Positions 2,670 to 61,657 of a stretch of DNA of 64,000 nt are shown here, piece by piece. The translations under genes were made by a program, and so were the position numbers. The stretch's first letter is position 1; each line of letters opens with the position of its first letter. The notes beneath the pieces were generated by a model. The model was not told the origin of the DNA and did not search any database. It worked only from the letters and a program-made list of their open reading frames with translations. The stretch spans positions 2,016 through 66,015 of the forward strand of contig CAYWKB010000002.1 in NCBI GenBank assembly GCA_964459225.1. Reading direction: 5' to 3'. Source of the DNA: an uncultured Candidatus Saccharibacteria bacterium. GTDB lineage: Bacteria > Patescibacteriota > Minisyncoccia > Phycocordibacterales > PALSA-1337.

Positions 2670-3131
2670 ATGGCAAAAGAAAAAAAATCATTTTTTGAAA
2701 GATTGACTGGAACAATAAAGATGAGTGAAGACAAGGAAGAAGCCTTGGATGAATCTTCTGATACAGTTGATGCAATTGATGATTTTGAAGAAGATGAAAA
2801 AGATGGTGAACTAACTGTTGATGTCTATCAGACAGGAGAAATGATAATTATTAAAGCCATGATAGCGGGTGTGAGACCAGAAGACCTAGATATATCAATA
2901 ACTCGCGATATAGTAACTATACATGGTAAACGTGAAGAAGAAAGAACAGCAAAAGAAGACGATTATTTTGTAAAAGAACTTTATTGGGGATCATTTTCTA
3001 GATCTATTAGTTTACCAGAAGAGATAGATGTGGATGAAGCAGAGGCAATTGAAAAGCATGGTCTACTTATTTTAAAACTTCCTAAATTAGATAAGAAAAA
3101 GCAATCAAAGTTAAAGGTTAGAACTGCTTAA
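2670..3131 (+). CDS. Hsp20/alpha-crystallin family small heat shock protein
   Basis: Alpha-crystallin domain pattern (VDVYQTGEMIIIKAMIAGV...ITIHGKREEE...FSRSISLP) with an acidic N-terminus. Confidence 0.8.
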   Translation: MAKEKKSFFERLTGTIKMSEDKEEALDESSDTVDAIDDFEEDEKDGELTVDVYQTGEMIIIKAMIAGVRPEDLDISITRDIVTIHGKREEERTAKEDDYFVKELYWGSFSRSISLPEEIDVDEAEAIEKHGLLILKLPKLDKKKQSKLKVRTA

Positions 3132-3234
3132 TTTGCTATTGAGCAATACTTTATCGTAGGTATTGCTTTTTCCCTCTATTTATGTTATGGTTTTCCGTGG
3201 AAAGGACAATCCCATGAAGGGGTTGAATAATTGA

Positions 3235-3684
3235 ATGGAAGAAATAGTGCCAATAATGGTTGTTTTAATCGACAACGATGATGGTGTAGGATTTGCCATC
3301 GAAGCAATATTCAAGACGCTTCTAAGTGATCTTGATATATTTTTGATCAAGTACAAGAGCATGTCTGAGGCAAGACAAGTGCTTGATTTGAGGATTCCAC
3401 CCGATGCTATTATCTGGGATGGACATATTACTGACGGCATTACCACAGATAAGATCGGGGACGAGGGATCACTTATCGAGATCGCTTGCGAACAGTTCCC
3501 TGAATGTCTCATGATCGCATTTTCAAGTGATCCTGAGATACATCAAAAGCAGAGAGAGTATGGTTGCACATTGAGCTTCAGTAAGCCAATGAATTTCAAG
3601 TTGGTGATAGATACAATTAGGAGCCTCGCTCAGTCGACTGTATTGACAGAACAGGACATACCTAAAGCACAAGCAGTTGCGTGA
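3235..3684 (+). CDS. Stand-alone response-regulator receiver (REC/CheY-like) domain protein; first gene of the GC-elevated island
   Basis: LIDNDDG (acidic pocket), IIWDGH (phospho-acceptor Asp), AFSSD (T/S87 position) and SFSKP (conserved Lys) match the CheY fold. There is no output domain. GC is clearly higher than in the flanks. Confidence 0.55.
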   Translation: MEEIVPIMVVLIDNDDGVGFAIEAIFKTLLSDLDIFLIKYKSMSEARQVLDLRIPPDAIIWDGHITDGITTDKIGDEGSLIEIACEQFPECLMIAFSSDPEIHQKQREYGCTLSFSKPMNFKLVIDTIRSLAQSTVLTEQDIPKAQAVA

Positions 3685-3710
3685 CAGTTTGGTTACGCAC
3701 AAAAATCTAA

Positions 3711-3762
3711 GAACTCACCCACCCGTGTAGAAAACACGAGGTGGGTGGTTTTGTTTTTATAC
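3711..3762 (+). terminator. GC-rich hairpin plus T-run terminator, copy 1 of a repeated element (near-identical to 8261-8312)
   Basis: gaactcacccacccgtgtagaaaacacgaggtgggtggttttgtttttatac, with stem cacccacc/ggtgggtg followed by TTTTGTTTTT, immediately after the REC gene stop. Confidence 0.7.
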
Positions 3763-3959
3763 TAATCATCAAATGAAATCGGGGGTGTAGCCCAACTTTT
3801 CTTTGCGGACCGATCATACTCATCAATATCCAAATTTCTTGGTGTGGATGATTCAGGTCTCACTTGATTGTCAGGTAGTGCAACTTCACTTGACCGTAAT
3901 TCAAAATCAGCTGGAGTGAAGTATTTGAAATAATTTGAGTATTGTTTTGTGTCTACCAT
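3762..3959 (-). CDS. Hypothetical small protein (65 aa)
   Basis: The only evidence is an open frame in a GC-elevated region. No motif was recognised. Confidence 0.25.
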   Translation of the reverse strand: MVDTKQYSNYFKYFTPADFELRSSEVALPDNQVRPESSTPRNLDIDEYDRSAKKSWATPPISFDD

Positions 3960-4061
3960 AATTTATCTCCATTGTTCAGCTACTATTCAAATTATATATC
4001 ACAAATAATCTCACATCAAATTTTGATTAAAATATTGAAGTACTGAACCCCGCAACACACA

Positions 4062-4089
4062 AACGGGCAGATGCATGCATCTGCCCGTT
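4062..4089. terminator. Perfect GC-rich palindrome (bidirectional terminator-like)
   Basis: aacgggcagatgcatgcatctgcccgtt is a perfect palindrome lying just downstream of the minus-strand ORF 4105..4338. Confidence 0.6.
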
Positions 4090-4104
4090 CTGGTTTTTAA
4101 TTGG

Positions 4105-4522
4105 TTACTTTCCCCTTAAGACTTTTATAACCCATCGTATTCGATTTCCAAATAAATACCTGTCAACAATCTGACAAGTGTCACTGATTTCCCTAGCGAC
4201 GGTAGGAACGGCACAACAATCTGTTTGATGAGCACGTTCATGAGCATTCCTGATGAAAAATCCATTACTGAGAATACCTTGTGCAGTTTCTCTGGATCTT
4301 CCGATCTCAGCCATCAATTCATTACCGTTGATTCGCATAACATGCTTTCAGTGTTAGTTTTGAAACTTCCCTCCTGATAAGTTCATCATCGACACAAGCT
4401 CTGACTCTTGATCCTCCAGTGTTGTTTCTTTGTCTGATGGTATTGTGCCCTCTCAGACTGATTGGTTTCTCTCCTGGTAGAACATCATATGTCCTACCAT
4501 CACTGAACTTTTCATTTTTCAT
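4105..4522 (-). pseudogene. Two overlapping minus-strand ORFs (4322..4522 and 4105..4338) in different frames. This is probably one frameshifted gene of about 139 aa, function unknown.
   Basis: Two adjacent ORFs on the same strand overlap by 17 nt in different frames, and a terminator palindrome follows downstream. An HNH-like assignment was considered but not supported. Confidence 0.3.
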
Positions 4523-4644
4523 TTTTGTCCTTTTTTGGTTCTCTTTCGATATGAGACAACTTTCACAAAAAATAACTGCTGTACTTCATATTATCACAAA
4601 AGTTATTTTTATTTAATTTTTTACTATAAATATCTTATATATTT

Positions 4645-4674
4645 AAAGAGGGTGCCATTCTGGACACCCTCTTT
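4645..4674. terminator. Hairpin terminator directly after the stop of ORF 4678..4959
   Basis: aaagagggtg-ccattctgga-caccctcttt, a 10-bp stem. Confidence 0.55.
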
Positions 4675-4677
4675 GAT

Positions 4678-4959
4678 TTAACGAAATTCAACCATTAGCA
4701 ATCCCTTCCTAAAAAGGAATTCGAACTCTAGGCACGCTAACCTTTCCTCGTCAAAAACGAGCCCACCTACCTTATGGAAATTGAATGATTCACCAAGCTG
4801 ATTTTCCAGTAGGGTTATCTTTTGTGATACAGACTCGGCATTTGAGCTCCTATACGTCTCTAGTAGAAAAATGTCGGCATCTGCTCCAAAAGATTTCTTT
4901 TTTTGTGGAAAACCTGCTTGTTCCTGTGGGTCAATTTGTTTAATCATAATTAACCTCAA
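4678..4959 (-). CDS. Hypothetical protein (about 90 aa)
   Basis: Open frame with a terminator hairpin immediately downstream. No motif was recognised. Confidence 0.35.
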   Translation of the reverse strand: MRLIMIKQIDPQEQAGFPQKKKSFGADADIFLLETYRSSNAESVSQKITLLENQLGESFNFHKVGGLVFDEERLACLEFEFLFRKGLLMVEFR

Positions 4960-4983
4960 GATAAATATTAGTTCTATAAGGCG

Positions 4984-5220
4984 TTAGACACCTCTTGCCG
5001 AGCGGAGTTCACGCAACATTTGAGGATTCGTGACACACAGTTTATTTGCGATTTTATCTTGTTCTTGATTTAGTGATTCTAGTTCCTGACTTTCTTCAGC
5101 GGTAAGATTACGTGTGCGATTTATTGTTAAAAGAGCTAATCGCCTTTCATTTCCTTTTTTATTTGACGATGGATTTTTCATTTTAGTTTTTTGTTTTATC
5201 GGTCTGAAAGTAGTATACAT
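4984..5220 (-). CDS. Hypothetical small basic/coiled-coil protein (65-78 aa)
   Basis: Open frame 24 nt upstream of the previous ORF on the same strand. Lys/Arg-rich N-terminus. No confident family assignment. Confidence 0.35.
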   Translation of the reverse strand: MYTTFRPIKQKTKMKNPSSNKKGNERRLALLTINRTRNLTAEESQELESLNQEQDKIANKLCVTNPQMLRELRSARGV

Positions 5221-5286
5221 AATAGATAAATAACGTACAAGAAGGAATAATTCTAGATCAATTAATTTTATGTAACATGGTTGAAT

Positions 5287-6576
5287 TTATCTTAGTGATT
5301 CTAATTGAAATTTTGCAACTCTACTTATAGATAATATATCACTTTGTGAAAGTATCCCTAAGGCCTCTTTCATTTGACCAATTGACTTCTCTCCGAGTCC
5401 AGTCTGACGAGCACCATTCCCAATAGTATCAACAATACGCAACAACTGTTCTTCACTAAATTGTTCTAAGTATCCATTGGGACGATTAATGACAATACCT
5501 GTACGTTGGCGAGCATCCCCATTTAACAAGTATTCTTGTACTATAACATCTGCATTACTATGAGAGAGCTTTGTATACAACTCCAACCAATCATAGAAAA
5601 GATCAGGAGATGAGGTCTTGGGTTCATGTTCTGCAATATATTTCTTCAAATTATCTCTTGTTACATCCTCCATCACCGCAACCTTAATTAATTCATAAAA
5701 CTTAGCATTAATAGCCTCATCTCTAATCTCATTTTCAGTAATATTTAAATGTTCAAGCAATTTAGGAAGTAACACCTTTTGAGCTTCAATGTCTGCTAGT
5801 GAAGCTTCTATCCACACACCAACTATTTCATCATGATCTAGCACACTTTTACCCTCGGTATACTGAGCATTAATCAGATCCATGATTTGACCCAATTCCC
5901 CTGTTGGTAGTAATGAAGGTAATCTAATTAAAGCATATCTACTGAGTTCACTATCTGAACTCAATGTGGTCTTTTTGTAAAGATTCTGAATCTTAACTGT
6001 CTCACGACCAATGAATGCTAAGTCACTTTCCGATGAATTATTTGCAGCTGAATCAATGTAATATGTTGTATATCCCAACAACGAAAGAATTGCCCTTCTG
6101 ACTTCAGGATCAGATTGATTATTGAACTCAATAATCAGCTCATCCGTAAGCTCTATGGGCTGGAGAAGTCTTAGCCAATCTAGAATAAGGATTGCATCAG
6201 CGCGATTACTACGATAAGTATTCCAAAGTGATTCAATCTTTTTGGCTCTATTCAAGCTTGTATTAAGTATCAGTGCTTTTATGGCGTTATCGAGTTTTCC
6301 CCCATTCAAGCTGATTAATCGATTTACAAACAAAGACACATCTACATTATCTAATTCATTTGAGGGAACCAAATGACCATAATCAAAAGTCTTTTGCTTT
6401 ACATCATCTACTGAAACCGATTTTATATAATCATTAATAAACCACTGACGCACAACCAGCGTTAATGATTGACCATAATTATAGATAAGACAGAAAAATA
6501 TAATTAAAATAACTGCCACCTTACTAATTATCCTGTTATTAGTTTTCATCCCAATGGTTTTATTAGATTCAATCAT
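5287..6576 (-). CDS. Membrane-anchored protein with a large alpha-helical-repeat (HEAT/PBS-lyase-like) ectodomain
   Basis: N-terminal signal anchor (VAVILIIFFCLIY) followed by about 400 aa of repetitive helical segments (for example DPEVRRAILSLLGY). Transcribed divergently from the formyltransferase-like gene. Confidence 0.45.
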   Translation of the reverse strand: MIESNKTIGMKTNNRIISKVAVILIIFFCLIYNYGQSLTLVVRQWFINDYIKSVSVDDVKQKTFDYGHLVPSNELDNVDVSLFVNRLISLNGGKLDNAIKALILNTSLNRAKKIESLWNTYRSNRADAILILDWLRLLQPIELTDELIIEFNNQSDPEVRRAILSLLGYTTYYIDSAANNSSESDLAFIGRETVKIQNLYKKTTLSSDSELSRYALIRLPSLLPTGELGQIMDLINAQYTEGKSVLDHDEIVGVWIEASLADIEAQKVLLPKLLEHLNITENEIRDEAINAKFYELIKVAVMEDVTRDNLKKYIAEHEPKTSSPDLFYDWLELYTKLSHSNADVIVQEYLLNGDARQRTGIVINRPNGYLEQFSEEQLLRIVDTIGNGARQTGLGEKSIGQMKEALGILSQSDILSISRVAKFQLESLR

Positions 6577-6679
6577 TAGTGTATTTTATCATGCATTGTG
6601 AAGTTATAGTTGCACCTATAATCAAAACTCGATGTTATGTTGTGTAATATATTATTAAAATGTAATATATATTAATAAT

Positions 6680-7513
6680 ATGAAATTTGTATTTTGTGGA
6701 TTTGACTTCTTCATATCAACTTTTGAAACTTTTATTTCTAATGGTTATATTCCTCTTGCAGTATTTTGCCATAAAGTGGATGGTATATATAATTCTTCAT
6801 CAACAATTAAATCACGTTGTAGTGAACTTGGAATTCCTTTTTACGAAAGAAATATGACAGAAGTTGACGTAAACTTTTTTCATACGATGAATTGTGAAAT
6901 AATAATTTCTGCGGCATTTGCATATCGCCTCCCTGCTGAAGCCATAGACAGTGCTGGAATTATGGGTATAAATATACACCCCACAATACTACCGAAAGGT
7001 CGTGGTCCATGGCCACTTCCACATATAATTTTAAAAAGAGAAATAGAAAGTGGAGTTACATTACATAAATTAGCTCATAAATTTGATACAGGAGATATAC
7101 TTCTAACTCGTGAATTTCCACTTTCAAAAAATGAAAATCTTGAATCACTATCATTCAAGGTGCGCAATTGTGCAGTTACTATAATTAAGTTGTTTTTACA
7201 AAATCCCAAGGAAACTTTCAGGAAAGCAATACCTCAATCATCTGGAACATACTGGGCAATGCCCACAGAAGTTGAACGGACGTTAGATTGGAATTTAGAC
7301 GTTGACCACCTTGACCGCATCATAAGAGCTTTTGGTAATTTTGAATCATATGCTTTTTTTGATAACAAAAATTGGCTTGTACAGGATGGAAATGTCTGGC
7401 CAGAAAAACATAGTTATATCCCAGGTACAGTTGTCGAACGCACAAATCGTGAGGTAATGATAGCAGCTAGTGATGGATTTGTTTGTCTACGTAGATTTAA
7501 GGAAGACAAGTAA
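6680..7513 (+). CDS. Formyltransferase-family protein (Fmt/PurN-like N-terminal catalytic domain plus a Fmt-like C-terminal domain)
   Basis: GINIHPTILPKGRGPWP matches the formyltransferase N...H...SLLP..RG catalytic signature, and a downstream Asp (FDTGDIL) fits the third catalytic residue. An AT-rich promoter region lies upstream. Confidence 0.6.
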   Translation: MKFVFCGFDFFISTFETFISNGYIPLAVFCHKVDGIYNSSSTIKSRCSELGIPFYERNMTEVDVNFFHTMNCEIIISAAFAYRLPAEAIDSAGIMGINIHPTILPKGRGPWPLPHIILKREIESGVTLHKLAHKFDTGDILLTREFPLSKNENLESLSFKVRNCAVTIIKLFLQNPKETFRKAIPQSSGTYWAMPTEVERTLDWNLDVDHLDRIIRAFGNFESYAFFDNKNWLVQDGNVWPEKHSYIPGTVVERTNREVMIAASDGFVCLRRFKEDK

Positions 7514-7574
7514 GCAACTAATGTTATAATATAAATAGACTCACCAAACACGCACACAAAAGAAAGAGTTAGTT

Positions 7575-7930
7575 ATGGAAAATGAACAATTCAAAGAACA
7601 TATCTTGTCTGAGTATGGTAAAGACATATTGTCGCAATTTGAAAACCACCCCAAGCATAATGGTAAATTGAGCTTTTCAGATGCTCTAAATCTGCTTGAT
7701 GAGATCATATCACCTGTTGCGGTTTACCCAAGTTTTGGCCGGACAAATTCAAGATCAGAAGATGGTTATTTCAAATTTAAATTTGATGAAGGTGGCCGTT
7801 TAATCCATCAAAGAAATCCGTAGAGGAACTTGAACGTCTCAAGGCTCTAAATCAAAAGTTGCAAGACACAGCACGACTTGCGGATCGACACCCGATTAAA
7901 GGCTATAACTTTCCTTTCCACAAAAAGTGA
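7575..7930 (+). pseudogene. Small gene with an apparent -1 frameshift. ORF 7575..7823 continues in another frame (from about 7790) to a TGA at 7928-7930, ending at a strong terminator.
   Basis: The second frame reads ...EELERLKALNQKLQDTARLADRHPIKGYNFPFHKK* and overlaps the first by about 34 nt. The terminator hairpin at 7946-7976 follows the second frame, not the first stop. Confidence 0.35.
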
Positions 7931-7945
7931 CAAAAACAACACATC

Positions 7946-7976
7946 AAAATGCACCCATTTGTATAGGGTGCATTTT
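7946..7976 (+). terminator. Hairpin terminator
   Basis: aaaatgcaccc-atttgtata-gggtgcatttt, an 11-bp perfect stem with flanking T/A runs. Confidence 0.6.
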
Positions 7977-8036
7977 CCTATTTAGAGTTTTGGATCTTCA
8001 ATTGATATATGTTAACATAACACTGGAGTTTCTTAT

Positions 8037-8228
8037 ATGTCAAAAACTACTGACAAATCAGCACCCCTAATAATCCTGCGACAGCCACCATCTGAATGGC
8101 GCATGAAGCTTCGGAGTTATATAAGTGAAATATCTAAATCATTCAATGCTTCAAATTTAAACAACGATCCAATCGTCGGTCCTAGACCAGGTACTAAGAA
8201 GTCGAGATACCACCCAACCACTAAATAA
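8037..8228 (+). CDS. Hypothetical small basic protein (63 aa)
   Basis: Open frame followed by copy 2 of the repeated terminator. Confidence 0.3.
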   Translation: MSKTTDKSAPLIILRQPPSEWRMKLRSYISEISKSFNASNLNNDPIVGPRPGTKKSRYHPTTK

Positions 8229-8260
8229 TTTTATTGATGTTAGGCTCAACAGATAGTATC

Positions 8261-8312
8261 GAACTCACCCACCCGTTTAGAAAGCACGAGGTGGGTGGTT
8301 TTGTTTTTATAC
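8261..8312 (+). terminator. Copy 2 of the repeated GC-rich terminator (50/52 identical to 3711-3762)
   Basis: gaactcacccacccgtttagaaagcacgaggtgggtggttttgtttttatac. Confidence 0.7.
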
Positions 8313-8314
8313 AC

Positions 8315-8360
8315 AAAACCCGCCTACGATTTCGACGTAGTGCGGGCTATGAGTTAATTG
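8315..8360 (-). terminator. Second repeated terminator family, copy 1 (hairpin cccgcctacg...cgtagtgcggg plus a conserved tail)
   Basis: aaaacccgcctacgatttcgacgtagtgcgggctatgagttaattg lies immediately downstream of minus-strand ORF 8380..8979. It is near-identical to 9063-9107. Confidence 0.6.
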
Positions 8361-8379
8361 GTGAATGATTAACCATCGA

Positions 8380-8979
8380 TTATATCACCTCAGTTCCATC
8401 TAACAGTTTCATTACTACTTTTTGTGATTGACCATCAGTCATGATCCCACTATATTTTTTACAACAAGAATCACATAAATGTATTGGGAATACGCTACCC
8501 CATACATTATAAACAGTCATTCTTGTTGCTGGAGCATCACAGTTCTCAATAAAACAGCGATATAGTGACGGATTCTCGGAAATCCCCTTACAAAAGCTAT
8601 AAATGCTATGTGGATTATCCCCGAAAAACCTTTTTGAAAGAGTTTTAATACTCCAACCCTTTGAGACTTTCAAATTAGAAGGGTGAATATATACCACTCT
8701 AGGGCAAGTACGCCATTTATCATCAGCAAGTAATGTGGAGAAGTCCACACTTAATAACATATCCCTATTTTTCGCATCCCACGATTCTACCTGTCTATGT
8801 GTATTGAATAGACCTGCTTTGACTTCACTTCCAAAAAACACAGCGACTTTGCATCCACCTTTATCAGAGATCCCTGAGTGTGGACACACGACATATCCTT
8901 GATATCCAAAAAATAGATTCTTAACCTCTCCACAAACCTCGACAATCGATCCTGCTTGTATTTGATCTAAATTACTCAT
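8380..8979 (-). CDS. Cys-rich hypothetical protein (199 aa; C-terminal HLCDSCCKKY cluster)
   Basis: Open frame with an upstream AT-rich region and 13 Cys residues, including the CDSCC cluster. No recognised family. Confidence 0.45.
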   Translation of the reverse strand: MSNLDQIQAGSIVEVCGEVKNLFFGYQGYVVCPHSGISDKGGCKVAVFFGSEVKAGLFNTHRQVESWDAKNRDMLLSVDFSTLLADDKWRTCPRVVYIHPSNLKVSKGWSIKTLSKRFFGDNPHSIYSFCKGISENPSLYRCFIENCDAPATRMTVYNVWGSVFPIHLCDSCCKKYSGIMTDGQSQKVVMKLLDGTEVI

Positions 8980-9062
8980 GATTAATCCTTTTGTTAGAAC
9001 GCCTACAAATAGATTACACTTTTAGAAAAGTAATGTAAATGTAATTCATATTATAAAAAACA

Positions 9063-9107
9063 AAACCCGCCTACGATTTCGACGTAGTGCGGGTGCATGA
9101 TTAATTG
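9063..9107 (-). terminator. Second repeated terminator family, copy 2
   Basis: aaaacccgcctacgatttcgacgtagtgcgggtgcatgattaattg lies downstream of minus-strand ORF 9123..9581. Confidence 0.6.
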
Positions 9108-9122
9108 TATTGTGTTCATTAG

Positions 9123-9581
9123 TCACAATACGTAAGCTTGCTTCAGATCAAAATCGATTACGCGTGCTTGACCTTTATCGATATCTATTTCTTGAAAACA
9201 CACCGCCTTATCAAACATACGGCAGCCTATAATAGTAGGCAAAAAACTCGTATACTCAAAGTGGGTGACTATGATTAGTGTACCCACAGCATCCCTACGT
9301 GGTATGATTATTTGATCGATTACTTCGTTGTGTTTTGGCGCGCATTGTTCTGACGAGTAAAGGATATTTTCGGTTCTATACCTTCCAATACCCAATGTTC
9401 TCATAATAATAGCAGCACTATCGGTGGCTCGAGTAGAAACAGATGATACCAATTCCGTCTCATTTGGGTTAGTAACTGCTGCGATTTTACAAGCAAGCTC
9501 ACTGATTTGTCTTTCACCTGTGGTGGTTAAGGATCCTCTAGCATTGTAATCTCCATGACGAACAACAATTATTTTTTTCAT
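9123..9581 (-). CDS. Histidine phosphatase superfamily protein (SixA-like phosphohistidine phosphatase size and motifs)
   Basis: N-terminal VVRHGDY (RHG catalytic motif) and a later TH (IIVTHFEY) in about 150 aa, consistent with SixA-type branch-1 histidine phosphatases. Confidence 0.55.
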   Translation of the reverse strand: MKKIIVVRHGDYNARGSLTTTGERQISELACKIAAVTNPNETELVSSVSTRATDSAAIIMRTLGIGRYRTENILYSSEQCAPKHNEVIDQIIIPRRDAVGTLIIVTHFEYTSFLPTIIGCRMFDKAVCFQEIDIDKGQARVIDFDLKQAYVL

Positions 9582-9707
9582 AATTTTTGCTTTCTACCTG
9601 AATAATATTAATCAGGCTTTCTGATCAATAATGTAACATATGAGTATAAATAGGCAATTAGGTAGTATTGACCTTACTATTCAAATCGTTTATATTTTAG
9701 TAGTCAT

Positions 9708-9735
9708 TAGAAAACGCCAACCTGTGTGGCGTTTT
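9708..9735. terminator. Hairpin terminator
   Basis: aaaacgccaacctgtgtggcgtttt. Confidence 0.5.
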
Positions 9736-9854
9736 CCTTTTACCTCTAACCTATATAACACTTCTGAAACTTTTGTGATCTAAATGTTTGGCTTTCAGAA
9801 CCTATTATACAAGGTGATGGTATAAAGACAGGCATACAATCCTTAAATTCAATA

Positions 9855-10143
9855 CTATATAATTACTAGAAAAAGTATTCCACTTATAAGTAAGGGTAGA
9901 ACATATAGCACAGAGGCTATGATTGTCTCCGAGTTCGATTTGTTTGATTTCAAGCTTATAAAAAAGGCTGAGGGTAAGGATAATATAAAGATTGCTAACC
10001 CACTCCAAAATAAAGGTTGAATATTGGGGCATGCATTCGGACCTAATCCGCAAGCACCTGCAGTTACAAACATAAAAAATATTACTGCAATTGGAAGTGC
10101 TACGAGAAAAATAGTAGATAAAACTTTAGTTATTATTTTCATA
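9855..10143 (-). CDS. Small membrane protein (about 95 aa from MKIITK), with three hydrophobic segments and a CGLGPNAC motif
   Basis: Hydrophobic ORF. The track start at 10172 is probably too early. The overlapping ORF 9805..10053 in another frame is ignored. Confidence 0.35.
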
Positions 10144-10339
10144 CAATTAATCTTACCATGAATTAACAACATTCACACATTCATCATTTAATTATTTAAA
10201 ACCATAGCAAATACGAATTTCCATTTTATCTACTTTGAAGCCGTCCTTATAATTGACATATCTATCAAGTATGGTATTGTATTTTCGGTGATGTTGCTGG
10301 TAGAAAACTAGCATTAACAATTAAACGAAAGTTTGTCAG

Positions 10340-11002
10340 ATGAAAACAAGTGGAAGTATCCCAGAAATCATTCGTAACAGCAGCGATGTCTATGAGGGAA
10401 ATCTTATAGAATATTTCAAAATTGTGTTCAGAAGCGCAAACAACCTTCGAAATCCGTACCATAATTTCAGGCACATGTTCCATGTGCTTTGGCTATGCTA
10501 CCAAGCATGCATATTCTACGGAGATAGGTTGACGAAGCGAGAGAAGAGGAATTTGCTGATCGCTGCCCTTTTTCATGACTTCAATCACACAGGTACTCAA
10601 GTCAACGATGATATCAACATTATGCTGGCAACCAGGGGTCTGATGCAATTTATACTGAATGAAGACCGAACCTATTTCATGGAAATCATTGAACTTATAA
10701 AATGCACCGAATACCCATACAAGACTCCATCTGGAGAGATTGGTCTCATGCAGCAAGTAATTCGTGACGCTGACTTAGGCCAAGTATTCAGCACTGCATG
10801 GATTCAACAAGTAGTATTTGGTCTGGCTACGGAGTGGAATAGGGAGCCTCTAGACATACTCAAAATACAAGCTCCTTTCTTAAGATATCTAAGATTCTAT
10901 AGCGAATGGGGACAAGAGATGTTCCCTGAATCAGTCATCAAAGAAAAAATTGATGAGGCGAATGAAATACTTGGTTTGCTAACCGATACGGGTGTTCAGT
11001 AA
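10340..11002 (+). CDS. HD-domain phosphohydrolase
   Basis: The motifs YHNFRHMFHV (H...H), ALFHDFNH (HD) and IRDADL (D) match the HD metal-binding signature. GC is elevated. Confidence 0.65.
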   Translation: MKTSGSIPEIIRNSSDVYEGNLIEYFKIVFRSANNLRNPYHNFRHMFHVLWLCYQACIFYGDRLTKREKRNLLIAALFHDFNHTGTQVNDDINIMLATRGLMQFILNEDRTYFMEIIELIKCTEYPYKTPSGEIGLMQQVIRDADLGQVFSTAWIQQVVFGLATEWNREPLDILKIQAPFLRYLRFYSEWGQEMFPESVIKEKIDEANEILGLLTDTGVQ

Positions 11003-11327
11003 TCATTCTGACACCAGAAAAAAACATCAACCGAGTCCTTGGGCTCGGTTGTTTTTTATTTAAAATATTTCACAAAGCTCAGTCTGGATGTTCGATTTGC
11101 CTCCCAGGCATCATGTAAGTAAAAGAAAATACCGGACAGGCCGGTACCTTCTTTTACGCATGAACCCATTGCGTGGCTTTCAGAACTTACTAAACAGGGA
11201 GATTATATCAAAAGTAGTATTCAAAATCTTTCCTTGCTTATGGTCCGATAAGCTCACAACATTCACTCATTCACTTTGTACGATATAAAAAAGTGCCCAC
11301 ACCCTCCGAAGAGAATAGGGCACTTGA

Positions 11328-11912
11328 TTAACGACGGTTCTTGAACGCTATTACTAACGCCAAGCTTCCGTTACCCAGTAAACCTACGCACACTGGGTGA
11401 ATGAACTGTTGCCACGTAGTGGTCTTGTCCAGCAAAAGAGCTGTTGTCATCAAGACGTATGTTGTCGTGGCGAGAGCCCAAGGAAGCACTTGCTCCTTTG
11501 CAACTCCTGCCAAAACTCCACGAATGGCGGGTATGAATGAAACGAGCATCGCTGTCTGTAGTAGCAGGTTTGCCAATACAGGGTCTTTGCTCAATTTCCA
11601 CATCACACCAACCACGATAGCAATCACGCCCGCCACGATGTCGAACCTGTTGATTTTACTGAACTTCCCTCGATAGAATGCGTAGAAGAAAATCGCGAGA
11701 AGACCAACGGTTGAGGCGAGAGTAACGCTAGATTTCCAAGGGTTGTGTCCGTTCGTCAGAAAGTAGGTGGCAAGGTTCATCACCGAGACCACCGACCTCA
11801 CGAAAAACGTAACAGGATTTGGAGTGATTTTGCCCTGTGCGGTTTTCACCAGATACAGGACAGGGACTACGAGCAGGATTATGCTCGCAATCAATAACAG
11901 AATGTTGTTCAC
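11328..11912 (-). CDS. Integral membrane protein (about 6 TM segments), hypothetical; GC about 50%
   Basis: Hydrophobic profile. Base composition differs strongly from the core genes. Confidence 0.5.
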   Translation of the reverse strand: MNNILLLIASIILLVVPVLYLVKTAQGKITPNPVTFFVRSVVSVMNLATYFLTNGHNPWKSSVTLASTVGLLAIFFYAFYRGKFSKINRFDIVAGVIAIVVGVMWKLSKDPVLANLLLQTAMLVSFIPAIRGVLAGVAKEQVLPWALATTTYVLMTTALLLDKTTTWQQFIHPVCVGLLGNGSLALVIAFKNRR

Positions 11913-12564
11913 GAGCTATCCTTTTGTTTGGGTTTGTTGTAAAAAGCCTATTCGTACCAACACTTGTATCATAACATATAAATAATACATTGTCTATAGT
12001 TATTTCAGAACTAGAGAAATAGTGTTATTTATAAACGTTTTTATAACAACTTATTAAATTTATAAAATTTTTACTATGCGAATTGTGACCAACAACGGGA
12101 CATACGTCGAACTTTTGTAGAAGTACTTAAGTTGTTGACAATCTCTAATACCGAATACTCTTCGGATACTAAAAAGTAAGATCTTACTGATTGAGTACCT
12201 GTAAGACCAAGTATGCGGGAGACTCGTAGATAGTGAATATCACTTGTACGTTACATAGTCTTACGATACTATATACGTGGATTAGTAACATACTTCACGT
12301 AACCCTCACAAACTATGAGTGACTCAAAGCTAGACAAATACCTGGAAAGAGTAGGGCACACGGAGTGTCCTGGTGTTCTAAATCAATGTGAACCGAGAGG
12401 AAGACATTACCATCAGCGGAGTAAGACAGAATTGCTTCGATCAATAGGCGTTTAAGAAGGATTTGATCAAAATCACCAGAACACCAATCGCATGTACGTG
12501 CTGTTCAGGTATCTGATAGTATCGCATCTAACAGTTACTAGGGTAACACAAAGGAGCACCTCAT

Positions 12565-12792
12565 ATGGAAACCAATGAAGTTGATCAGTTTCTTTCCCAA
12601 CTCAAGCATACTGAATTCCCAACAGTTCTGGAAGTATTTGACATTGAACGACAAAAGATGTCACTGGATGATCAATCAAATATTGCCAAACTTTCTGACT
12701 TATTAGACCTTGTTCGGGCTAGTTCCCCGGAACACCAATTATATGTGCGTGCATCTGACCGTACGGATTCGTTGTCCTTCACTAGTGATTAA
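12565..12792 (+). CDS. Hypothetical acidic small protein (75 aa) with a strong Shine-Dalgarno sequence
   Basis: AAAGGAG lies 7 nt upstream of the ATG, and a hairpin terminator at 12812-12838 (aagagggctgtcaaaggccctctt) follows. Confidence 0.4.
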   Translation: METNEVDQFLSQLKHTEFPTVLEVFDIERQKMSLDDQSNIAKLSDLLDLVRASSPEHQLYVRASDRTDSLSFTSD

Positions 12793-12961
12793 TAATCTAA
12801 TTGCGAATCTCCAAGAGGGCTGTCAAAGGCCCTCTTTCTGTTGAATCAACGACTCGCTTATCTACATTTACAAGAGTGCTGTACAAAGGTCATATAGTCT
12901 AGCAATCAACACATACTTGTGTTTTGTGGTATATGGTAAAAGTTGCAGGACATGGCAAGTG

Positions 12962-13033
12962 TGACCCTACAGGGAATCGAACCCTGATTACCGCCTTGAG
13001 AAGGCGATGTCCTAGCCGTTAGACGATAGGGCC
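12962..13033 (-). tRNA. tRNA-Glu (anticodon CUC)
   Basis: Folded by hand as a cloverleaf. Acceptor stem GGCCCTA/TAGGGTC, anticodon stem TCGCC/GGCGG with loop TTCTCAA, T-arm CAGGG-TTCGATT-CCCTG. Its 3' end faces the island. Confidence 0.75.
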
Positions 13034-13057
13034 GTATTTTATTTATTACTATTACTT

Positions 13058-13158
13058 AAAGGGGTGAAATATGTGTCTTGAAAGCCCGAGGACTGTCTGA
13101 GCGTAGCGATAGCGAAGCGAGTTACGCAGGGCTTGAAAGACATATATTTCACCCCTTT
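13058..13158. repeat. Long imperfect inverted repeat (about 30-bp arms, 41-bp GC-rich spacer) between tRNA-Glu and murF
   Basis: Left arm aaaggggtgaaatatgtgtcttgaaagccc and right arm gggcttgaaagacatatatttcaccccttt, with 3 mismatches. The spacer contains agcga repeats. Confidence 0.6.
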
Positions 13159-13175
13159 CTAAAATAACTCAAAAA

Positions 13176-14441
13176 TTACTTCTTAGCAAGCCATTCTGGC
13201 TCCTGTCTTACGAGTAAATCAGTGGCATTTTCACCATCACGCAAAAGTACTTTACATATCCTTTCCATTCTCATTGATTGAGAGCCTTTAACAAAAACAA
13301 CATCACCACTTGCAACAGTGCCCTTTAAATATTCAGAAGCTTCAATTGAATTATTGAATTTAATAGCATTATTGCTCATCACTTTTGATCTTTGACCAAC
13401 AGTAATCAAAATGTCGCATGATTGCATGGCTTGTATTCCAGCCTTTTTATGTTCTTCAATCGAAAAGCTACCAAGCTCCATCATATCTCCAATCACTGCT
13501 ATTCTCTTGCCACTTACTTGAAGTGACGCAAGAGTATTTAATCCCTCTTTTAATGCATCAGGAGATGAATTATAGCTATCATCTATTATTGTACTGCCAT
13601 TTATACCTCTCAAAATATTCATTCTACCTCTTGGCGATACATGCTTATCAAGTGAATTAATTATTTTAACTAGAGGAACATTTTTAGTTATACCAACTGC
13701 AATACCTGCAATTACTGGATATATCTGTTGCAATCCTAAAATTCCTTTAATTTTAATGGGCACACTATTGCCCTGTGTATTTATTTTAAATGACATGCCC
13801 ATTGGTATGCTTTCATTGTCATAAATGATTACTGGATCAGAGGCATTTACTGTTGCGATCTGCTTCATACCATATGATATACATTTTTGACTTACGCCTT
13901 TTGACATTTCAATCACTAACTTATCATCAGCAGAAAGGACAAGAACCCCATCAGATTTCAAAGTTTTTATTAAAAATGATTTTTCCTTAACCAAATCAGC
14001 GACAGTTGGGAATGCTTCAATATGTACAGGTACTTCCCCTATTTTAGTAATCACAACAATATCAGACTTTAGCCACTTTGATACACTTTGAATATCCCCC
14101 GGATGATCAGCACCAACTTCAAGCACTAAACATTTTGGATATTCAGATTTAAATAAAATCAATTCAAGTCCAACCAAAATATTTTCAATCCATGCAATAG
14201 GATCGCTCCATCCATTTTGACAACCAAGAATAGTTAATGGAACACCTATTTCGCTATTAAAACTTTTTTCACTTTTCCTAACATAAGTTGTATCAGATAA
14301 AACAGTAAAAATAGCATCCTTAGTAGATGTTTTACCAACACTTCCTGTTATTGAAATAATAAACGGATTGTACTTTTTGATAATTAATTTTGATTCAAAA
14401 ATCAAAATATTTGTAATAACTTTTTTAAAAAATGATTTCAT
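13176..14441 (-). CDS. murF: Mur ligase; most likely UDP-MurNAc-tripeptide--D-Ala-D-Ala ligase MurF
   Basis: P-loop ITGSVGKTSTKD (the MurF-type GSxGKTS) and a Mur ligase middle/C-terminal domain pattern. It is the last gene of the dcw block. Confidence 0.6.
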   Translation of the reverse strand: MKSFFKKVITNILIFESKLIIKKYNPFIISITGSVGKTSTKDAIFTVLSDTTYVRKSEKSFNSEIGVPLTILGCQNGWSDPIAWIENILVGLELILFKSEYPKCLVLEVGADHPGDIQSVSKWLKSDIVVITKIGEVPVHIEAFPTVADLVKEKSFLIKTLKSDGVLVLSADDKLVIEMSKGVSQKCISYGMKQIATVNASDPVIIYDNESIPMGMSFKINTQGNSVPIKIKGILGLQQIYPVIAGIAVGITKNVPLVKIINSLDKHVSPRGRMNILRGINGSTIIDDSYNSSPDALKEGLNTLASLQVSGKRIAVIGDMMELGSFSIEEHKKAGIQAMQSCDILITVGQRSKVMSNNAIKFNNSIEASEYLKGTVASGDVVFVKGSQSMRMERICKVLLRDGENATDLLVRQEPEWLAKK

Positions 14442-14446
14442 GGAAA

Positions 14447-16156
14447 TTATCTATCTGGTGGTATTTCGTAATAATTGATAAGTAACTTTGTCAGCTGAAT
14501 AAATGGATCTGTAAGGGTTTCGGAAGCGTATTGTGCACCCTTTGGATATATATGGTATAGGAAAACAATAAATTTAGGATTATAAGCTGGGAAATATCCA
14601 AAAAATGAATGCAAATACCTGTCTTTATAATACCCTCCATTTACAGGATCTGCAATCTGAGCAGTACCTGTCTTGGCTGCAATACTATAATGTTCCATTT
14701 TTACCTCGCCTTTTTTTAATGATTTATCAACGACGTTTATAAGCATATTTGTAACATCTTTTACTGATTCTTCATCAAATATTCTCTTACTTTTTATTTC
14801 TATATCCTTTTGATTACCATTTGTATACTCTATTCTTTTAATTATATGTGGAGTAACTAAATTGCCACCATTTGCAAGAGTAGCAAGTGCAGTAATTGTT
14901 TGAATTGGTGTCATTGATATTCCCTGTCCATATGATGCAGTTGCGATTTCAATATCTCTATGAGAAATTAGATTTTTAACTATTCCAGTTTGCTCATTTG
15001 GTTGATCGATATTTGTCTTTTCACCAAAACCTAAATTCAAAAAATATTTTGAAAAAGTTTCAGGTCCTGTTTTTAATGCAATTGTTGCTGCACCAACGTT
15101 TAATGATTGACTTAATACCTCTTGCATTGGTATTACACCTCTTGCCTTTCCATCGTAATTTGATATTTTCCTTCCATTAAGATTTAATGATCCTTCATCA
15201 TTATATGTTGACCTTGCATTAATCGCTCCAGAATCAATACCCACAGCCATTGTTAAAGGTTTAATAATCGAACCCATTTCATATGCGTCCTCTACAAGTG
15301 GATTAGAAAATATTCTCGCATCTTTTACATTTGATAAATCATTGGCATTAAAATTCGGTAATTTTGACATTGCATATATTTCGCCAGTATTTGGATCCAT
15401 AATTATTCCACCAATAGAATCAGAATTCCATTTTTCTTTTGTATCTAAAAGTGTCTTTTCAAGATATGAAGCAACTGTTGGTTCAATAGATGAGATTATA
15501 TCCCCTTCAACATTTTCTGAGCTCAACACTGTTTTTCTTAAATCAGAAAAAACCTCAGCAAAAAAATTAATATTACTCTGAGTTGATTTCCTAGTTAATA
15601 CATCTTCATAAAATCTCTCAAGACCATATCGTCCCGCCAATGCATTTGTCCTATCAAGCCCAATAAGTCCGATGGTATGTGATGAAAGTGAGTCTGCAGG
15701 ATATACGCGATAATTATCTTGTTGTGCAACAACGCCAGGTATATGAAGAGAATAAATTGACTGACCAGTTGCGGTATCAAGCTTTTTAATTAATTCAAAA
15801 TACTGATTGCTTTTATCATTTGCCTTTTCCTTAAATTGACCTTCTTCTATATCAATATATTGAGTTAATGCATCATAAACTTGATCAACATTTTGTATGT
15901 TTTTTGGATTAATTGAAATATTATAGCTTTGCTTCATAGTTGCAACCGCTATTTTGTCATCATTTTTTAAAGTAAAAAAAATACTTCCCCTATCAAAACC
16001 TTTTACATTAGGTTTAACATATTGCTTTTCTGCTTTTGAAATATATGTATCGCCTTTTATAATCTGAACATAGTAAAGTCTAAATACTATAACTAGTACA
16101 AAAAAAGAAATACAAGCTAAAATTATTCTAGTTCTAAATACAAAATTAGATTCCAT
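14447..16156 (-). CDS. ftsI: Penicillin-binding protein 2/FtsI-type transpeptidase
   Basis: N-terminal TM plus a dimerisation domain, then SIIKP (SxxK), SLN (SxN) and KTGTA (KTG) motifs. Confidence 0.85.
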   Translation of the reverse strand: MESNFVFRTRIILACISFFVLVIVFRLYYVQIIKGDTYISKAEKQYVKPNVKGFDRGSIFFTLKNDDKIAVATMKQSYNISINPKNIQNVDQVYDALTQYIDIEEGQFKEKANDKSNQYFELIKKLDTATGQSIYSLHIPGVVAQQDNYRVYPADSLSSHTIGLIGLDRTNALAGRYGLERFYEDVLTRKSTQSNINFFAEVFSDLRKTVLSSENVEGDIISSIEPTVASYLEKTLLDTKEKWNSDSIGGIIMDPNTGEIYAMSKLPNFNANDLSNVKDARIFSNPLVEDAYEMGSIIKPLTMAVGIDSGAINARSTYNDEGSLNLNGRKISNYDGKARGVIPMQEVLSQSLNVGAATIALKTGPETFSKYFLNLGFGEKTNIDQPNEQTGIVKNLISHRDIEIATASYGQGISMTPIQTITALATLANGGNLVTPHIIKRIEYTNGNQKDIEIKSKRIFDEESVKDVTNMLINVVDKSLKKGEVKMEHYSIAAKTGTAQIADPVNGGYYKDRYLHSFFGYFPAYNPKFIVFLYHIYPKGAQYASETLTDPFIQLTKLLINYYEIPPDR

Positions 16157-16475
16157 TTTGATTAGCCATAGCAGTGATTTTACCTTTTGAAATATATGAT
16201 GTTATTTCAGTACTCTTAAATCCCTTTGCATTTGCTAATTCAATATTAATTGAATTTTTGATTGTAAAATATTTTGCCTCTAATTCACTTACTGTTGTAC
16301 CCAAAACTCTATTTTCCTTAACTATTTTTTCCCTTTCAACTACATTTGAAATAACATTTTGCAAAAAATATACATATAAAAATGACAGAGACATAATACC
16401 AACAATTAAAATTTGAAAAATCCTATCTCTATAACTAAATACTGTATTAATATTATTTGCTATTACTTGTGTCAT
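16146..16475 (-). CDS. ftsL: FtsL-like cell division protein (single TM plus coiled coil)
   Basis: Positioned between rsmH and ftsI. Single TM helix followed by a short coiled-coil region. Confidence 0.5.
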   Translation of the reverse strand: MTQVIANNINTVFSYRDRIFQILIVGIMSLSFLYVYFLQNVISNVVEREKIVKENRVLGTTVSELEAKYFTIKNSINIELANAKGFKSTEITSYISKGKITAMANQNGI

Positions 16476-16477
16476 GT

Positions 16478-17380
16478 TTATATTTTTTCTAATATTCTTA
16501 ATTTTGCACTTCTTGATCTTGCATTATTTGAAATTTCTTCTTCACTTGGTGTTATTGGTCTTTTTGTAATTATGAGACCATCACCCGCATCTGCTCTTTC
16601 TTTATTAAAATTTTTAACAATTCTATCTTCCAAACTGTGGAATGAAATCACTGCTATTCTGCCTCCCTTTTCCAATCTTTCAAATCCATTTACTAGACCC
16701 TTTTTTAAAGTATTTAACTCATCATTTACTGCAATTCTCAAGGCTTGAAATGTCTTTGTTGCTGGATGTAATCTTCCATGTCTATAAAATGAAGGTACGG
16801 CACTTGTTATGATTTCAACCAATTCGCTTGTTGTTTCAATTGATTTCTTTTGTCTATAATTTGCTATTGCCCTAGCTATTCTTCTTGAATACTTTTCTTC
16901 ACCATAACCATATATAACATCTGCAATATTGTTTTCCTCCCAAGTATTTACAATTATTTTTGCTGTTAAATCACCTTCTACAAAATCCTTTTTAAAGGTC
17001 ATAAGTAGTGGCTCATCATTTTTAAATGTAAATCCTCTGCCAGATGTTTCAAATTGATCTGATGAAAGTCCTAAATCAAGCATAATCCTATTTACCTTTT
17101 TTATATTTAATTTATCTAGTACTGATGAAATGTCACCATAACTAGATTCAATTAAATGAATTTTTGCATCATTGTATTTTGCAAGTCTTTCTTTTGATCT
17201 TTTTAGAGCTTCTGTATCTCTATCAAGACCAATTGCTGTTATGTTTTTATATTTACTTAAAACATAATCAGTGTGACCTGCACTTCCCAATGTTCCATCA
17301 AGATAAATATCGCCATCTTGGATATTTAGACCATCAATTGATTCTTTTAAAAGAACTGTCTTATGTATCAAATTATCCAT
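16478..17380 (-). CDS. rsmH: 16S rRNA (cytosine1402-N4)-methyltransferase RsmH/MraW
   Basis: GTLGSAGHT, LDLGLSSDQ and the conserved dcw position. Confidence 0.9.
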   Translation of the reverse strand: MDNLIHKTVLLKESIDGLNIQDGDIYLDGTLGSAGHTDYVLSKYKNITAIGLDRDTEALKRSKERLAKYNDAKIHLIESSYGDISSVLDKLNIKKVNRIMLDLGLSSDQFETSGRGFTFKNDEPLLMTFKKDFVEGDLTAKIIVNTWEENNIADVIYGYGEEKYSRRIARAIANYRQKKSIETTSELVEIITSAVPSFYRHGRLHPATKTFQALRIAVNDELNTLKKGLVNGFERLEKGGRIAVISFHSLEDRIVKNFNKERADAGDGLIITKRPITPSEEEISNNARSRSAKLRILEKI

Positions 17381-17386
17381 ATACTG

Positions 17387-17830
17387 TTATATTATTCCTA
17401 CTGATCCCAGCTTTTCGGCTAATGCATCAGTTTTCTTTTCAACAGTTGTACGATAACTCGACCATACTTTTTCATCCCAAACTTCAACTCTATTTAGAAC
17501 ACCTATTATTGCAACTTTTTCTTTTAAACCTGCATGTTCACAAAGATGAGTTGGAATAAGTATTCTACCTATTGAGTCTACTTCAACCTCTGTAGCACGA
17601 CCGAATATTATTCGGTTAAAGTTACGATTATCAGCTTGCAAAACTGATGAAGAATCTGGTCTCGATAGTCTCTCTGCGAATTCTTGCCATCCCTTTAAAG
17701 TAAAAATGAAGAGACAGCTATCTATCCCGGGAGCAATGACTACAGTGTTTCCCATTTCCTTTCTAAATTTAGAAGGAAGAGAAACTCTGCTTTTGTCGTC
17801 TATCGTGTGCAGATGTTCTCCGATTAGCAT
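17387..17830 (-). CDS. mraZ: Transcriptional regulator MraZ
   Basis: Tandem MraZ half-domains (IDDKSRVSLP ... VDSIGRILIP). Confidence 0.85.
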   Translation of the reverse strand: MLIGEHLHTIDDKSRVSLPSKFRKEMGNTVVIAPGIDSCLFIFTLKGWQEFAERLSRPDSSSVLQADNRNFNRIIFGRATEVEVDSIGRILIPTHLCEHAGLKEKVAIIGVLNRVEVWDEKVWSSYRTTVEKKTDALAEKLGSVGII

Positions 17831-17971
17831 AACTTTTTTGTGAAAAGAAATTATTTCCTACTTCTTCCCACTTACATACCATTTTATCCCACATCACTTA
17901 ACAATGCAAACAAAATTGCCCACTTTATGTGGACAACTTTGTAAAAAATATTTAATTAGAAAAATTTAATA

Positions 17972-19285: not shown

Positions 19286-19320
19286 ACTTGTTTTATATCA
19301 TTTATTGATTAAATTTGCAC

Positions 19321-61625: not shown

Positions 61626-61657
61626 AAAACGGGAGCCACAAGCGGGGCTCCCGTTTA
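61626..61657 (+). terminator. Hairpin terminator
   Basis: aaaacgggagcc-acaagcgg-ggctcccgttt. Confidence 0.65.

Follow-up and report, generated by a model that had tools for sequence, protein, structure and literature searches.

A composite, integrase-less genomic island at tRNA-Glu in a Patescibacterium, probably built by serial integration and hairpin-mediated rearrangement

Serial integration at the tRNA gene of a genomic island, with partial tRNAs and element remnants left behind, has been described for the tycheposon islands of Prochlorococcus (bioRxiv 10.1101/2020.12.28.424599), and a review (PMC5704250, citing Pavlovic 2004 and Bellanger 2011) covers cis-mobilizable elements (CIMEs) and tandem accretion. 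In the literature searched, papers joining Patescibacteria (candidate phyla radiation, CPR) with genomic-island or recombinase topics are few, none of those listed being titled on that subject, and gene gain is little documented in these bacteria, which have very small genomes. We report here on a 64-kb stretch, hereafter the window, of the low-GC (33%) patescibacterial contig CAYWKB010000002.1. Its positions 3180-12960, which end at a tRNA-Glu gene, probably form a composite island devoid of integrase, derived from serial integration at a tRNA-Glu hotspot together with hairpin-mediated rearrangement.

By analogy, this locus resembles the tycheposon islands in its streamlined genome, its tRNA-adjacent position and its small, niche-type cargo, and also in an organization where newcomers would enter at the tRNA, older elements would be pushed inward, and remnants with partial att (attachment) or tRNA repeats are scattered. 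Some tycheposon-type elements use large serine recombinases. The window differs from them by the absence of an integrase or replication module, by its host, a Patescibacterium, by repeats that are element arms with an 8-nt tRNA core rather than long partial tRNAs, and by the very small size of its units (1.4-3 kb). With CIMEs it shares the loss of integration genes and the retention of att-type joints, whereas its att sites are decayed, making cis-mobilisation doubtful, and no partner integrative conjugative element (ICE) or integrative mobilizable element (IME) is present. We know of no conjugation machinery in this lineage.

The tRNA-proximal part of the island has a relative in a tandem array of L057, an NCBI contig with a GC content of 0.32 and CPR-type core genes. 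In this contig, a 77-nt arm (attL) comes after tRNA-Glu(TTC) (6996-7068), whose sequence closes with ...GGGGTCACA. The same arm is repeated at 8569 and 11520, each time after a 62-nt arm plus GGGTCACA, and the last copy of the 62-nt arm with its core (12829-12890) is followed by unrelated DNA (attR-like). The final 8-9 nt of the tRNA-Glu gene mark the exact start of the array, whose joints read attL / attP-like / attP-like / attR, the layout of three elements in tandem. These measure 1.5, 2.95 and 1.36 kb and none carries a recombinase. The attP-like joint (62-nt arm, GGGTCACA, 77-nt arm) is an imperfect palindrome of ~140 nt. The array, at 6996-12890, looks intact, and its cargo includes two methyltransferases and a membrane protein of 194 amino acids (aa) that is also encoded in the window.

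Such arrays recall integrons and clusters of attC sites lacking integron-integrases (CALINs) in having small, mostly single-gene units with no recombinase nearby, split by imperfectly palindromic site-like elements, as in the L057 joint. However, judged by reading the sequence, the arms read AAGTTCTGAAAGCCACGC...GGGTCACA and hold no RYYYAAC/GTTRRRY pair, the island genes occupy both strands, each with a promoter and terminator of its own, and the anchor is a tRNA, not attI, with no IntI. An integron or CALIN was rejected, there being no R''/R' consensus in the arms and the cassettes being neither co-oriented nor promoterless.

Two decayed counterparts of the L057 joints lie in the window:

12961-13033, minus strand: tRNA-Glu(CTC), found by ARAGORN and by the Rfam tRNA model (59.5 bits)
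11228-12960, minus strand: segment S1, between the tRNA-Glu 3' end and arm W2
11159-11227, minus strand: decayed attR-like arm W2 (...AAGTTCTGAAAGCCACGCAATGGGTTCATG), homologous to the L057 62-nt arm plus GGGTCACA
9840-11158, no strand assigned: segment S2, with hairpins at 11119-11157 and 11028-11051, an HD hydrolase gene and the gene of a 105-aa membrane protein
9773-9839, minus strand: decayed attR-like arm W1 (...AGGTTCTGAAAGCCAAACATTTAGATCACA)

The 3' end of the tRNA-Glu gene (...GTAGGGTCAC, then A) points to the island, which begins at 12960 and directly abuts it, as the initial annotation had stated, and this end would represent the attB/attL anchor. An nhmmer model built from the three L057 arm copies alone, without any window sequence, matches W2 at 11161-11226 on the minus strand (E 1.8e-10) and W1 (E 7.1e-5), with no further match of E below 7 in the 64 kb. 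Both arms are on the strand of tRNA-Glu, downstream of it and inside the island only, and the window's tRNA-Glu(CTC) ends in GGGTCACA, like the core of the L057 joints. Since the arms match the L057 array and the tRNA of the window has the same end, the intervals 12960-11228 and 11158-9840 are read as two successively integrated small elements, the right joints of which have decayed. S1 contains a hairpin (12813-12836), diverged tandem small open reading frames (ORFs), an AT-rich promoter region and the membrane-gene cassette discussed below. As candidates for att repeats derived from the tRNA end, two decayed arm-plus-core copies lie within the island, with none at the Hsp20 boundary. The exact GTTCTGAAA, an att-like arm core, is also found outside the island at 33660, 37373, 45986 and 55081, and occurs 7 times in the window against 1.05 expected. 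A pseudo-tRNA candidate at 7816-7906, resembling the tRNA end and its downstream flank, was dismissed as chance (local score 25, against 24-28 in whole-window shuffles).

The same tRNA receives different DNA in related genomes. A comparison with relatives, proposed with the initial annotation, came out in its favor: the murF-tRNA-Glu(CTC) adjacency is kept in seven relatives, the DNA after tRNA-Glu differs among L005, L008, L011, L012 and L014, and the island genes were found downstream of tRNA-Glu in none of the relatives with this adjacency, the nearest of which has a MurF identity of 66%. L005 carries a 573-aa large serine recombinase (Resolvase and Recombinase domains) overlapping the tRNA-Glu 3' end, in an element of GC 0.41-0.43 against 0.335 for its host, and its homology with the close relative L006 ends at the tRNA end. 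In this element (11590-15556), the last ~21 recombinase codons are antisense to tRNA-Glu(CTC), so that a portion of the tRNA 3' end probably comes from the element itself; the recombinase is followed by proteins of 216 and 450 aa without Pfam match. ValRS directly follows tRNA-Glu in L008, whereas ~9.6 kb (11469-21050) separate the two in L012. This insert, another island at the same tRNA-Glu site, encodes a radical-SAM/PqqD protein resembling maturases of ribosomally synthesized and post-translationally modified peptides (RiPPs), an ABC-F ATPase, an N6_N4 DNA methylase with a MutH/Sau3AI-like nuclease, which form a restriction-modification (R-M) pair, and a serpin-like protein. These sequence comparisons show the site downstream of tRNA-Glu to be an integration hotspot in the relatives.

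Part of the cargo of S1 forms a mobile cassette:

11256-12013, minus strand: mobile cassette with the 194-aa membrane gene
11328-11912, minus strand: six-helix membrane protein of 194 aa (GC 0.49; GC at third codon positions, GC3, 0.58)

Eight window proteins were looked up in clusters at 90% identity, and only this one has a multi-member cluster (11 members from other assemblies of JGI, Logan and NCBI), the others, MurF included, being singletons. It is 99% identical in aa sequence to its L057 counterpart, against 66% for the best MurF match, with 90.5% nucleotide identity over 772 bp, and 95% identical in aa sequence to those of L058-60. The ratio of nonsynonymous to synonymous substitution rates (dN/dS) is 0.05, indicative of strong purifying selection. 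In L057, too, the gene stands out by its GC content (0.47 in a background of 0.32). In L058 it belongs to a module encoding proteins of 93 and 132 aa, the membrane protein, a MerR-like protein of 271 aa, a 158-aa protein and a 531-aa large serine recombinase, the 3' end of which overlaps the 3' end of the transfer-messenger RNA (tmRNA) gene (element at 9212-14198). No direct repeat of the tmRNA end was found at the far side of this element. These features mark the membrane-gene cassette as mobile. The L005 and L058 elements resemble the window island by their target class (tRNA or tmRNA 3' ends) and their lineage, and L058 also by this cargo; in both, the recombinase gene overlaps the 3' end of the RNA gene. 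They differ in that the window has no recombinase and that L058 targets tmRNA instead of tRNA-Glu. The two recombinases have no detectable tblastn similarity to each other, and tblastn searches of phages and plasmids with the 194-aa protein were negative.

The whole region is compositionally foreign. Its GC content is 0.374 against 0.323 for the remaining window; other 9.8-kb windows have a mean of 0.324 (standard deviation 0.011, maximum 0.346), and 1-kb bins inside the island differ from the rest (Mann-Whitney p = 5e-5). Tetranucleotide distance is maximal at 9-13.5 kb. Both checks suggested with the initial annotation, windowed GC and tetranucleotide usage, therefore deviate from the rest of the window, and the announced GC rise is real, but the values of 40-50% hold in patches only (~0.42-0.45 at 3300-3900 and 0.40-0.49 at 10350-12000), long stretches having only 0.30-0.36. 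Rfam finds two tRNAs only, and thus no structured RNA as a source of these patches. GC by sub-block is as follows:

3180-3762: 0.417
3763-8260: 0.353
8261-9093: 0.378
9094-10250: 0.345
10251-11930: 0.429
11931-12960: 0.378

In host genes GC3 is ~0.20, and the host-codon log-odds is 0.33 +/- 0.07 and never falls below 0.148. The island ORFs range from 0.21 to 0.58 in GC3 and from +0.21 (formyltransferase) to -0.56 (194-aa membrane protein) in host-codon score, at the bottom of, or under, the host range. The island also has a lower coding density (74% vs 94%) and a shorter median ORF length (93 aa vs 254 aa). These deviations mark it as horizontally acquired. Moreover, the window has seven perfect GC-rich hairpins of 8 bp or more, and six of them sit within the island, as do four imperfect hairpins of two types, D1 and D3. 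Nearly every island gene is thus followed by a strong intrinsic terminator, in contrast to the core operons; the genes lie on both strands, each with terminators and promoter-like sites of their own. The sole perfect GC-rich hairpin outside the island (61627-61656, AAACGGGAGCC...GGCTCCCGTTT) lies just past the ORF at 60376-61599, in a region from ~57 kb on where the GC skew is positive.

In the inner, tRNA-distal part of the island, D1 and D3 hairpins delimit the rearranged blocks:

8261-9772, minus strand: inner block
9710-9736: terminator of the inner block
9051-9093: terminator repeat D3', after the RHG-motif gene
8304-8346: terminator D3, after the Cys-rich gene
8261-8312: terminator D1'
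3763-8260, no strand assigned: nested 4.55-kb indel between the 52-bp direct repeats D1 and D1'
3711-3762: terminator D1, after the REC-like gene
3235-3762, plus strand: REC-like gene with terminator D1

D1 and D1' are terminator hairpins of 52 bp, 96% identical, with no third copy in the window. The cargo between them consists of a 429-aa ORFan, a formyltransferase and seven small ORFs. L041, a JGI metagenome contig (GC 0.34), has the C-terminus of a REC-like homologue, a single D1-type hairpin, D3 and a Cys-rich homologue directly adjacent to one another. This Cys-rich homologue is 64% identical, has the same terminators and is convergent with the REC-like gene. L041 displays the unoccupied arrangement, lacking the 4.55-kb block. 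Since L041 shows the flanks joined, the 4.55 kb between the repeats is a repeat-bounded indel, the simplest reading being a repeat-flanked gain through Campbell-type recombination. The GC (0.353) and codon scores of the block are nearer to those of the host than the outer parts of the island are. D3 and D3' have an identical core of 32 nt and fold as a hairpin followed by a U-tract, and a third synteny break with L041 occurs 12 nt from D3' (9051-9093). The Cys-rich gene lies between the 43-nt direct repeats D3 and D3', 747 bp apart, and may be another hairpin-bounded cassette. Neither the D1 nor the D3 pattern is present in the viral contigs scanned.

Taken together, these data lead us to favor the following scenario. 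Site-specific recombination would have inserted small elements serially into the 3' end of tRNA-Glu (core ...GGGTCACA), each new element displacing the earlier ones away from tRNA-Glu, with a recombinase provided by a helper element or lost later. The att joints would then have decayed, leaving two attR-type arms (11159-11227 and 9773-9839) and segments of ~1.8 and 1.4 kb. Independently, the 4.55-kb block would have been gained in the older inner part (or lost elsewhere) through recombination between 52-bp terminator hairpins, an event that would have left the direct repeats 3711-3762 and 8261-8312. Directly observed are the foreign composition, the att-like arms with their homology to the L057 array, the near-identical membrane-gene cassette and its link to a serine recombinase elsewhere, the repeat-bounded indel with its L041 counterpart, and the hotspot in relatives. 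The order of these events, the identity of the recombinase and the present immobility of the island are what we infer from this arrangement. The tRNA-anchored, degraded integrative origin proposed in the initial annotation is thus supported by the att-like arms, the mobile cargo and the hotspot in relatives, with the correction that the island is a mosaic and reflects at least three to four acquisition events instead of one degraded element.

Several observations weigh against this scenario. Searches of the island ORFs with Pfam, PHROGs and NCBIfam returned neither an integrase or transposase nor a piece of either, a six-frame Pfam scan of 11900-12965 gave no integrase remnant, and tblastn of the window with the L005 recombinase gave a best E of 0.16, the other recombinases and neighbors from relatives revealing no remnant either; the absence of a recognizable integrase reported earlier therefore holds in all these scans. 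The tRNA end is not repeated beyond its 8-nt core: k-mer and fuzzy searches found no repeat of at least 12 nt in the window, and the direct repeat that had been suggested near 3130-3240 is not there. The cores of the two arms are mutated (GGGTTCATG and AGATCACA), no homologue of the 77-nt left arm follows the window's tRNA-Glu, and no att remnant was found in the left 6.6 kb (3180-9772). The arms could also be passive flanks of the membrane-gene cassette instead of marks of local integration, which fits W2 and fits less easily W1, which has no L057-like cargo next to it. Moreover, no empty site for the whole island is demonstrable among relatives, all with MurF identities of at most 66%. Finally, two taxa do not polarise the indel, which is either an insertion here or a deletion in L041.

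Some of these points would also suit a hypervariable region shaped by ordinary illegitimate or homologous recombination, next to which the tRNA is incidental and in which the arms are hitch-hiking regulatory or terminator sequences. Both an integrase and an intact att pair are missing, the breakpoints of the left 6.6 kb coincide with the hairpins D1 and D3 and not with tRNA fragments, and the 77-nt arm of L057, which lies upstream of genes, contains what resembles a promoter (-10 TATAAT). We nevertheless consider this explanation unlikely, given that the attL/attP-like/attP-like/attR series of L057 sets in precisely with the final 8-9 nt of tRNA-Glu, that both window arms share the orientation of tRNA-Glu and lie downstream of it, and that three other lineages harbor different foreign DNA exactly from the tRNA-Glu 3' end.

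The cargo, in addition to the membrane-gene cassette, comprises the following genes:

3235-3684, plus strand: REC-like protein of 149 aa (GC3 0.44), the leftmost gene of the island
3762-3959, 4105-4338, 4322-4522, 4678-4959 and 4984-5220, minus strand: small ORFs, the second and third overlapping
5287-6576, minus strand: helical protein of 429 aa with an N-terminal membrane anchor, an ORFan among 5.8 billion clusters
6680-7513, plus strand: divergent formyltransferase (Formyl_trans_N and Formyl_trans_C)
7575-7823 and 8037-8228, plus strand: small ORFs
8380-8979, minus strand: Cys-rich SH3-like protein of 199 aa
9123-9581, minus strand: RHG-motif histidine-phosphatase-like gene
9855-10172, minus strand: three-helix membrane protein of 105 aa (GC 0.32)
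10340-11002, plus strand: HD/PDEase_I-like phosphohydrolase
12315-12455 and 12565-12792, plus strand: small ORFs, diverged tandem duplicates of each other

The gene assignments made from sequence reading fared unequally. The HD-domain hydrolase is confirmed by Pfam PDEase_I (7.5e-7) and phrog_16069 (2.5e-29), and the family, with 591 homologues at 52-61% identity, several of them from sources named Patescibacteria or Paceibacterota, could have a role in cyclic-nucleotide turnover. The formyltransferase-family assignment of 6680-7513 also stands through its two Pfam domains, but the protein scores only 94 bits against TIGR00460 (fmt), under the equivalog cut-off of 201.5, and 86 bits against the ArnA N-terminal domain; it is best regarded as a superfamily member only, failing the threshold for Fmt. 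Its phage matches are remote only (<30%). The Cys-rich protein belongs to a genuine family of 81 representative clusters with four invariant Cys. Its AlphaFold model (pLDDT 92) predicts an SH3-plus-zinc-ribbon protein, with the ~200-aa family layout of an N-terminal SH3/KOW-like barrel, a helical linker and a zinc-ribbon-like 4-Cys end (C142, C147, C169, C172), and without whole-chain match in PDB or BFVD. In L040, a member of this family adjoins a zf_Tbcl_2 protein.

Other assignments are tentative or hold in part. The orphan REC domain has no Pfam match even at E <= 1 and no PDB sequence support, but the DNDD, D, S and KP motifs stand at the expected strand ends of a (beta-alpha)5 pattern, and the top Foldseek matches of a low-confidence model (pLDDT 54) are nearly all receiver domains (E 5e-4 to 1e-2, TM ~0.5). 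For the SixA-like phosphatase, the support consists of the RHG motif and a sub-threshold His_Phos_1 match (18.8 vs 21.7 bits). The membrane-anchored helical-repeat protein is indeed a 429-aa protein with an N-terminal anchor, here an ORFan. Among the two membrane proteins described as GC-rich, this holds for 11328-11912 (0.49) but not for 9855-10172 (0.32). For the putative frameshifted genes, the candidate ORFs gave no homologues to compare with, and what the sequence shows is the overlapping pair 4105-4338 and 4322-4522 and the diverged tandem duplicate 12315-12455 and 12565-12792.

It could be argued that these genes form one functional signaling or nucleotide-second-messenger module (REC-like, SixA-like, PDEase_I-like HD and membrane proteins), acquired and selected together, in line with the earlier suggestion of a novel accessory module. 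The domain mix recalls phosphorelay and cyclic-nucleotide turnover, the HD homologue of L036 adjoins a His_Phos_1 protein, and the REC-like and Cys-rich genes are neighbors in L041. However, the L036 protein is unrelated to the phosphatase-like protein of the island, and a conserved HD and His_Phos_1 pair was rejected on this ground. The HD homologues are lone genes in varied, unrelated contexts (the loci examined include L028-L032), the membrane gene has different neighbors elsewhere, and the island genes use both strands, carry their own terminators and differ from gene to gene in codon usage (GC3 0.21-0.58). PADLOC gave no match to defense systems in the island, and a defense island was likewise rejected. 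A single module is for these reasons quite improbable, and the cargo rather consists of independent, terminator-bearing single-gene units that do not make up one pathway and for which no unified function was found.

A single degraded prophage or ICE would account for the position at a tRNA and for the HD hydrolase, which belongs to a PHROG family and has homologues in IMG/VR contigs spanning 24-315 kb, with 47-48% identity (48% in those of 60-315 kb), some of which reach jumbo-phage size. We consider it very improbable: structural, replication, conjugation and integrase genes are all missing, no DNA match was obtained among 50,697 phage or 72,556 plasmid records (blastn for phages), and four of the five island proteins scanned in IMG/VR (429-aa, REC-like, 194-aa membrane and Cys-rich) have no viral relatives, the fifth being the HD hydrolase. 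In a PHROG scan of the island, strong matches were limited to the HD hydrolase and the formyltransferase, with two others at E 0.002. The internal att-like joints and the heterogeneous composition also point to several units. A prophage in particular was rejected for its lack of structural, packaging and lysis genes and of any blastn phage match.

The island is flanked by core genes on both sides:

Left flank: RecR, DEAD-box helicase, PrsW and Hsp20
2670-3131: Hsp20, the core gene left of the island
3132-3234, no strand assigned: left junction with the core, from the Hsp20 stop at 3131
Right flank: tRNA-Glu, murF, PBP2/FtsI-type transpeptidase, ftsL, rsmH and mraZ

The sole content of the left junction (3132-3234) is a terminator-like hairpin of Hsp20, and neither sequence reading nor nhmmer found an att-like sequence in it. 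The best relatives of MurF are metagenome-assembled genomes (MAGs) labelled Saccharibacteria, Paceibacterota or Wolfebacteria, with best identities of 66% (GTDB genomes) and 57% (JGI metagenomes), and no 90%-identity relative was found anywhere searched. That mis-assembly or binning attached foreign DNA to a MAG contig is extremely improbable. Logan short-read contigs do break at 8342, 9064 and 13094-13113, but these positions match the internal D1/D3 repeats and a long palindrome, and the overlaps between contigs are consistent. In 5-6 samples, each core-island junction lies inside single contigs that match the window at 100% identity, the Hsp20-side junction being assembled identically in six. 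Because the contigs span both junctions and break only at repeats or the palindrome, the island is not an assembly chimera.

A near-perfect hairpin of ~100 nt at 13050-13165 (-43 kcal/mol, z = -7.6) occupies the spacer between tRNA-Glu (13033) and the murF stop (13176), and both short-read contigs terminate within its loop. It has no DNA similarity in any relative and no Rfam match, and in L008 the tRNA begins 2 nt beyond murF. It could be an insertion resembling a miniature inverted-repeat transposable element (MITE) or an unusual terminator.

Beyond this locus, it is conceivable, albeit doubtful, that Patescibacteria harbor a family of tiny (1.4-3 kb) integrase-less elements of one to few genes with ~140-nt attP-like sites (62-nt arm, GGGTCACA and 77-nt arm), arrayed in tandem at tRNA-Glu and mobilised in trans by a recombinase encoded elsewhere. 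If so, ultra-small genomes would possess the equivalent of an integron cassette system anchored on a tRNA gene, with an array that has decayed in the window and is intact in L057, the contig better suited to this question. The locus itself provides a concrete example of a tRNA-Glu integration hotspot in Patescibacteria, with joints that are still recognizable. A six-helix membrane protein is common to otherwise unrelated genomes at 95-99% identity, terminator hairpins serve as indel boundaries, and two uncharacterised yet real families are brought to attention, one SH3-like with four Cys and the other a small phosphodiesterase-like HD family. Serial accretion at tRNA genes is well known in other bacteria, and the finding extends rather than changes known biology by placing a probable case in Patescibacteria.

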